Shown piece after piece: positions 59,662 to 59,804 of a stretch of DNA of 59,804 bases. Source of the stretch: an uncultured Lachnospiraceae bacterium (GTDB lineage: Bacteria; Bacillota; Clostridia; Lachnospirales; Lachnospiraceae); NCBI GenBank assembly GCA_948946835.1, contig CARBNS010000014.1:1-59804 (forward strand). The letters are read 5' to 3'. Position 1 is the stretch's first letter, and each line of letters starts with the position of its first letter. Under the pieces are notes generated by a model. It saw only the letters and a list, made by a program, of their open reading frames with translations, searched no databases and was not told the origin of the DNA. The position numbers and the translations under genes were made by a program.

Positions 59662-59804
59662 AAATACGGGATTCTTTTTGTCACAAAATAAAACAACTCC
59701 TCACTGGTTTGTGGTAAAATTGAGATGTCCAGTAACAATCAACCATCCGCCAGAAAGGAGTTGCACCTACATGATACCATACAAGCAGCTTTCTTTGGCA
59801 GATT

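Follow-up and report, generated by a model that had tools for sequence, protein, structure and literature searches.

[quoted passage not shown] The contig (CARBNS010000014.1 of assembly GCA_948946835.1) was analysed over its whole length of 59,804 nt, referred to below as the window. Close to its end, a 544 amino acid ORF on the minus strand (58027–59661) matches the Pfam MVP_shoulder domain (PF11978; 2.5e-21, ORF residues 229–344). An earlier sequence-only reading of this locus had described a longer MVP gene, interrupted and now starting internally, whose vault repeats continue 5' of the ATG in the same frame and are decaying behind two nonsense codons. The letters on which that reading was built are correct. 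Retranslation of 59662–59802 on the minus strand gives the same conceptual peptide (SAKESCLYGIM, stop, VQLLSGGWLIVTGHLNFTTNQ, stop, GVVLFCDKKNPVF), both in-frame stops lie where they had been placed (TAG at 59767–59769, TGA at 59701–59703) and a second frame (ICQRKLLVWYHVGATPFWRMVDCYWTSQFYHKPVRSCFIL followed by a stop, ICQRKLL...CFIL) is open over the same nucleotides. What was at issue, then, is what this upstream DNA is and what shortened the gene.

That the gene was once longer is borne out by its relatives. A protein search with the 544 amino acid ORF returned homologues that are nearly all ~800–830 amino acids long, the best of them (P0001) having 796 residues and being 97% identical. BLASTP aligns ORF residues 12–544 with residues 264–796 of P0001 without gaps, and a closer 796 amino acid allele, P0243, has the same coordinates; the 544 amino acid protein (P0241) falls into one 90% cluster with both. 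Orthologous loci in related genomes, where the sequence-only reading had suggested looking, do contain an intact long MVP gene: three loci (L215, L216 and L004) have the uninterrupted gene and the same downstream synteny, that is, an empty site. P0243, an allele from strains of the species to which the window belongs, is carried by L215, which comes from a mouse gut metagenome, and by L216. The reverse complement of the window is 99.72% identical to L215 (10788–22391) over 11.6 kb, starting at window position 59630, where the break is abrupt: alignment to the intact loci revealed no similarity between 59631–59804 and the intact allele. The retained 1604 nt differ from the intact allele by just four substitutions, two of them non-synonymous (two amino acids), so the event that interrupted the gene is recent. 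Both forms are well represented in public data, the intact P0243 being indexed in 255 collection blocks and the 544 amino acid form in 45. A 525 amino acid protein that was considered as a further interrupted allele (P0249, L217) proved to be the intact allele with small assembly gaps.

What is left in the window begins at the second base of codon 263 and comprises codons 264–796 and the stop codon of the 796 amino acid allele; the shoulder domain and the coiled coil at the C-terminus are preserved, along with two copies of the N-terminal repeat motif. The features of the window edge to which the following paragraphs refer are these:

58027–59630, minus strand: retained 3' two-thirds of the MVP-like gene, from alignment to the intact allele
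59602–59616, minus strand: putative internal start, SD-like GGAAAGGAG (59616–59608), cag, ATG (59604–59602), from the sequence and the empty site
59620–59630, no strand assigned: predicted copy of the target-site duplication (TSD), AGCTTTTTATT in gene orientation, placed from the 4-nt spacer and 11–13-bp TSD of full copies
59632–59661, minus strand: IS-derived first 10 codons of the ORF, MRVLAFRKRL, from alignment to the intact allele
59632–59804, plus strand: left terminus of an IS1182-like insertion sequence (IS), truncated at the window edge, from matches to the multicopy element
59632–59647, plus strand: left terminal inverted repeat TAGGCGTTTGCGAAAC, from aligned IS copies
59771–59804, plus strand: first 11 codons of the transposase (codons 59771–59803), MIPYKQLSLAD, from the sequence and the extension in L001

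The DNA beyond the break is found in many other genomes. A 23-nt probe taken from it (59652–59674) matches more than 119 places in bacterial genome contigs, searched with one genome per species, nearly all of them in Lachnospiraceae or other Clostridia and many at contig ends. When these copies are aligned with their flanks, every one opens with TAGGCGTTTGCGAAACGCC (TAGGCG...), all of the more than 119 loci start with TAGGCGTTTGCGAAAC, and the sequence outside differs from copy to copy (114 loci have distinct flanks). The 173 nt in the window (59632–59804) can be aligned at near-full length to 33 loci with ~87–98.3% identity, the closest being L044 (98.3%), L089 (96.0%) and L037 (94.8%), whilst most others lie at 87–91%. 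Nine copies have both ends and measure 1480–1759 bp, six of the nine falling between 1742 and 1759 bp. At their right end, full copies have TAGGTAATTGCGAAAC (opposite strand), an imperfect inverted repeat of the left TAGGCGTTTGCGAAAC, and most of the nine have such imperfect repeats together with 11–13-bp TSDs (L013, L048, L080, L094); repeats and duplications alike are read from full copies elsewhere, the window copy showing the left end alone.

The transposase start at 59771 is preceded by an SD of its own, GAAAGGAG, at 59753–59760 on the plus strand. In L001, a contig that continues to 391 nt upstream of the gene, the opposite-strand ORF starting MIPYKQLSLADFFTDCQNKF extends to 94 amino acids, which share 85% identity with the N-terminal part of the 485 amino acid transposase encoded by a full copy (L009). 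The L009 protein has a Pfam DUF772 match above the cut-off (1.8e-11) and a weak DDE_Tnp_1 match (0.027), and its residues 261–458 match the NCBIfam model transpos_IS1182 (6.5e-16) at 58 bits against a cut-off of 270, so that the protein is transposase-like and the family assignment approximate. In its single transposase ORF with N-terminal DUF772, its weak but specific NCBIfam IS1182 match, its length of ~1.76 kb, its imperfect terminal repeats, its TSDs and its many copies per genome, the element resembles the IS1182 family (IS5-like, DDE); it is unlike that family in scoring 58 bits where the equivalog cut-off is 270, and in strongly preferring, in one orientation, sites ~16 nt from an SD-like GAAAGGAG. 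Related copies on plasmids, with proteins 36–78% identical, are annotated merely as 'hypothetical protein' or 'transposase'. Judged from the aligned copies, 59632–59804 belongs to an IS1182-like IS of ~1.76 kb, of which it forms the left end and whose transposase is transcribed away from the MVP-like gene; the DNA 5' of the ORF consists of the left inverted repeat, a leader and 11 transposase codons on the opposite strand. A consensus scan detected neither an outward promoter nor a terminator in this end of the IS.

The flanks of the element have a common feature that bears on where it inserts. Among 114 independent flanks, 110 contain the motif CTCCTTTC, the reverse complement of the Shine-Dalgarno sequence GAAAGGAG, centred 17–23 nt from the IS end; across roughly 50 genomes (loci L007–L125) the IS lands ~16±2 nt from it, always with the transposase directed away from the target gene. 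In full copies the order is motif, 4 nt and the 11–13-bp duplication. Read outward from the IS, 66 of the 110 sites (60%) lead through an SD and a start codon into a frame that stays open for 100 codons or more; random positions in these loci do so in 2.65% of cases. At most of the other sites the motif is there but no long gene follows, so it seems to be the motif as such that is recognised. The MVP-like gene contains a near-perfect mimic of a ribosome-binding site plus ATG within its coding sequence, ACT GGA AAG GAG CAG ATG (T-G-K-E-Q-M283), and the GGAAAGGAG-cag-ATG motif was there before the insertion, as the empty site of L215 and L216 shows. The IS lies 16 nt from this motif (15 if base 59631 is left out) in its usual orientation, and its insertion point in the gene can be put down to its own target preference acting on the internal mimic. 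The general proposal, that across ~50 Lachnospiraceae and Clostridia genomes the IS recognises the SD-type GAAAGGAG and inserts ~16 nt upstream of ribosome-binding sites in one orientation, and that the MVP gene was struck only through its internal mimic, is offered tentatively, as a conjecture that may well prove wrong. No description of SD-directed IS targeting was found in the collection of papers searched.

At the junction itself, the IS sits between codons 263 and 264, inside the fourth instance of the repeat motif (GEE on one side, LFITGKEQMIYYP on the other); the true repeat motif at this point reads GEELFITGKEQMIYYP. Base 59631 differs from the intact allele, which has G here when read along the gene, and is not a conserved base of the IS either, which leaves the breakpoint ambiguous by one nucleotide. 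The junction lies within the palindrome AAGCTT (59626–59631). All three listed contigs that carry the 544 amino acid gene end 95–391 nt upstream of it, as would be expected at a multicopy repeat. We propose that an IS1182-like element transposed into the coding sequence of a 796 amino acid bacterial MVP homologue between codons 263 and 264, and consider the locus at the window edge to be, very probably, a recent, ordinary, strain-polymorphic IS disruption of an MVP-like gene. Disruption of genes by insertion sequences, polymorphic within a species, is commonplace. The present case resembles others of its kind in that the interrupted allele occurs beside an intact one at 99.7% identity, in that it has not decayed further and in that assemblies break at the IS; the sole unusual point is that the intragenic site mimics the ribosome-binding-site target that the IS prefers. 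With about one third of the protein gone, the MVP homologue would be expected to have lost its function, and what is left of the gene would be separated from the promoter of the upstream operon.

The fate of codons 1–263 depends on the far side of the IS. The insertion may have been simple, in which case the 5' part of the gene would lie just beyond the IS and the gene sequence ...GGCGAGGAGCTTTTTATT would be followed by the IS right end TAGGTAATTGCGAAAC. Alternatively, insertion could have been followed by an IS-mediated deletion or rearrangement that removed the 5' 790 nt, and possibly the CHAT/ClpP-like/TraG-like operon as well, from IS-bearing strains. Such a deletion is a variant of the IS-insertion explanation and is compatible with it, and we regard it as the less probable course, though by no means a negligible one. 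In its favour, neither the other IS junction nor codons 1–263 in IS-bearing strains were found by any of the searches made, and base 59631 is irregular. A scan of metagenome contigs for an intact N-terminus gave a best match of 79% identity, from another species, and a protein search with the N-terminal 263 residues returned only fragments from other species, including the split genes of L206 (163+605 amino acids) and L214 (298+487 amino acids). Neither the protein collection nor the metagenome scan yielded an N-terminal fragment of at least 90% identity besides intact and frameshifted alleles; among the 15 of 25 members listed for the P0001 cluster, the sole N-terminal fragment is the frameshifted P0251. 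Five predicted fragment sequences were absent from the protein collection by exact look-up. When the whole window was searched by tblastn with the intact N-terminal 266 residues, nothing appeared beyond an echo of the internal repeat (E 0.18). Four members of the cluster of the neighbouring CHAT protein (P0258, P0260, P0259 and P0267) are all encoded beside an intact MVP gene, and the short forms are explained by frameshifts or contig starts and not by IS junctions. Against the deletion, these searches are indirect, so that failure to find the 5' part counts as weak evidence: the cluster was listed to 15 of its 25 members, an exact look-up misses a sequence with a single substitution and the contig look-ups covered the blocks of longest contigs.

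It could also be asked whether the organism has an uninterrupted gene, the end of the contig being a chimeric join to an IS copy from elsewhere in the genome. Assemblers do err within multicopy repeats such as the one in which the window ends, and the intact allele is the commoner in public data, both of which would fit an artefact of this kind. The same junction is nevertheless present in independent assemblies at NCBI (GCA_948711695.1), ENA (ERZ17911532) and JGI (3300051405), in addition to the 45 blocks that index its product, and the join falls exactly at the IS terminus and at the typical distance of the IS from an SD-like motif, something that a random chimera would not reproduce. An assembly artefact is therefore very improbable.

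The reading of the upstream DNA as vault sequence does not survive these results. The upstream frame is the frame of the ORF and holds a W-L-I-V-x-G stretch that loosely resembles a vault repeat, yet an origin by point mutation of repeats in situ can be set aside with near certainty, since the 173 nt are unlike an intact allele that matches at 99.7% directly downstream, are ~87–98% identical to IS copies elsewhere, encode a peptide that fits no vault motif and cannot be brought into alignment with codons 215–263 (tried over 59662–59804). Homology to the intact gene ends at 59630 and what follows is IS terminus, so the two stops did not arise by mutation of MVP codons but result from translating the IS in an arbitrary frame. 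A pseudogene would be expected to retain some similarity to its functional counterpart over the disabled region, and between 59631–59804 and the intact allele there is none. The segment GGWLIVTGHL, which had been taken for a vault motif, fits neither the consensus proposed for it, G-[DE]-x-W-L-[VI]-x-x-x-G, nor the repeat motif of the protein itself; it is encoded by conserved IS DNA, and its resemblance to a vault repeat is best regarded as chance. It had also been said to lie at the right spacing for the preceding repeat, whereas the real motif occupies ORF residues 12–24, not a position ~35 residues 5' of the ATG. A Pfam search with the upstream conceptual peptide gave zero matches even at E≤10, and over the 391 nt available in L001 the same frame has four further stops and contains nothing vault-like.

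The other open frame, for which the last part of a gene further upstream had been suggested, is instead the codon-aligned antisense of the transposase N-terminus, and for this reason stays open for ~95 codons in L001. The contig beyond the window edge, which the sequence-only reading had named as the place to look, does hold an unrelated gene and no vault repeats, as would tell against in-place decay, except that this gene is on the opposite strand and not in the open frame that had been named. That reading was right in seeing a longer gene that is interrupted and starts internally; its repeats decaying in place and its GGWLIVTGHL motif were not upheld.

How the 544 amino acid ORF came to be called also becomes clear. 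Directly 5' of its ATG, an SD was looked for and none is present. The tip of the IS has an outward-reading ATG 28–30 nt from its end (59632–59661, minus strand) in a frame that is open to the terminus, so that intragenic insertions that happen to be in frame will be mis-called as N-terminally extended fusion ORFs. Here that ATG is by chance in frame with what remains of the gene, giving the 544 amino acid call; codon 11 of the ORF (59629–59631) straddles the junction and reads AAG (K) in place of GAG (E263) in the intact allele. The start of the ORF is in all likelihood an artefact of ORF calling, made of IS sequence. A residual product, if there is any, would more probably arise from the internal SD and ATG at 59604–59602, which corresponds to M283 of the intact protein and M20 of the ORF; it would have 525 amino acids and lack the N-terminal 263–282 residues. 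M283 is the likeliest start codon, and one database entry (P0242) already begins the protein at this internal methionine, giving 525 amino acids.

The disrupted protein can be compared with MVP by sequence. The intact P0243 matches Pfam MVP_shoulder at 4.8e-21, and intact residues 436–756 align with residues 476–802 of rat and human MVP, covering the last repeat, the shoulder and the cap helix (E 9.4e-15, phmmer against PDB chains). Towards the N-terminus, the motif G-x3-[IVF]-x-x-G...[YF]-x-P recurs at residues 102, 152, 203, 261, 310 and 436 of the intact protein, with a spacing of 49–58 residues through position 310 and the sixth copy at 436; the window copy retains the last two copies and part of a third. 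Of the Pfam Vault repeat models only Vault_3 matches, at 19–20 bits against a cut-off of 28.8, and phmmer aligns intact residues 94–189 weakly with MVP 289–395 (i-E 0.24). We accordingly treat the intact 796 amino acid protein as being, by sequence, a bona fide MVP homologue. With the bacterial homologues described previously (10.1101/872010) it has in common the MVP_shoulder domain, an N-terminal repeat of ~50 residues and a C-terminal alignment to MVP; it differs from them in N-terminal repeats too diverged for the Pfam Vault models, and the window copy differs further in having lost residues 1–263. They also differ in host, a Lachnospiraceae/Eubacterium-like organism of the mouse gut here, whereas that preprint treats gliding Myxococcales, Cytophagales and cyanobacteria.

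Downstream of the MVP-like gene, the window, L215 and L216 have in common genes for a 1390 amino acid Big_2 protein, ATP-grasp, DUF308, MatE, TetR and MMPL proteins. The first of these genes (53840–58012, minus strand) starts 14 nt past the MVP-like stop codon and encodes a secreted-looking protein with a signal-peptide-like N-terminus and Big_2, Flg_new and CarboxypepD_reg matches; its position is conserved in all related loci. Upstream, the loci with the intact allele have a run of genes for a TY-Chap1-like protein, a TraG/VirD4-like ATPase, a ClpP-like protein, two unknowns and a CHAT protease, the MVP-like gene following directly after the 886 amino acid CHAT-protease gene (L215 3343–12391; also L004, L216 and L218–L220). 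The genes from CHAT to TY-Chap1-like, which lie outside the window, are on one strand with their ends overlapping or abutting. This run and the MVP-like gene have the look of a single operon, which may encode a system of the conflict or secretion type, and the IS insertion would also cut the 1390 amino acid gene off from it.

Other copies of these genes are broken or altered, whether by real decay or by assembly error. Split CHAT genes encode 135+754, 627+262 and 571+262 amino acids (L229 10001–12665, L221 8121–10789 and L222 4165–6842). Among the MVP alleles, a frameshift near residue 390 affects one, and a second has lost 22 amino acids in frame within the coiled coil (P0251 and P0246), and the split MVP genes of two other species mentioned above lie at L206 10001–12442 and L214 2292–4745.

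What appeared to be a decaying vault gene thus turns out to be one that an IS has disrupted, a routine event that is recent and polymorphic between strains. The preference of the IS for ribosome-binding-site motifs is the one item that possibly merits follow-up: if true and undescribed, it would represent a new kind of site-directed DDE element, one that systematically uncouples genes from their promoters. For the vault homologues themselves, the disruption provides presumed natural knock-out strains beside an intact 796 amino acid allele, a ready comparison for studying the function of these proteins in bacteria.
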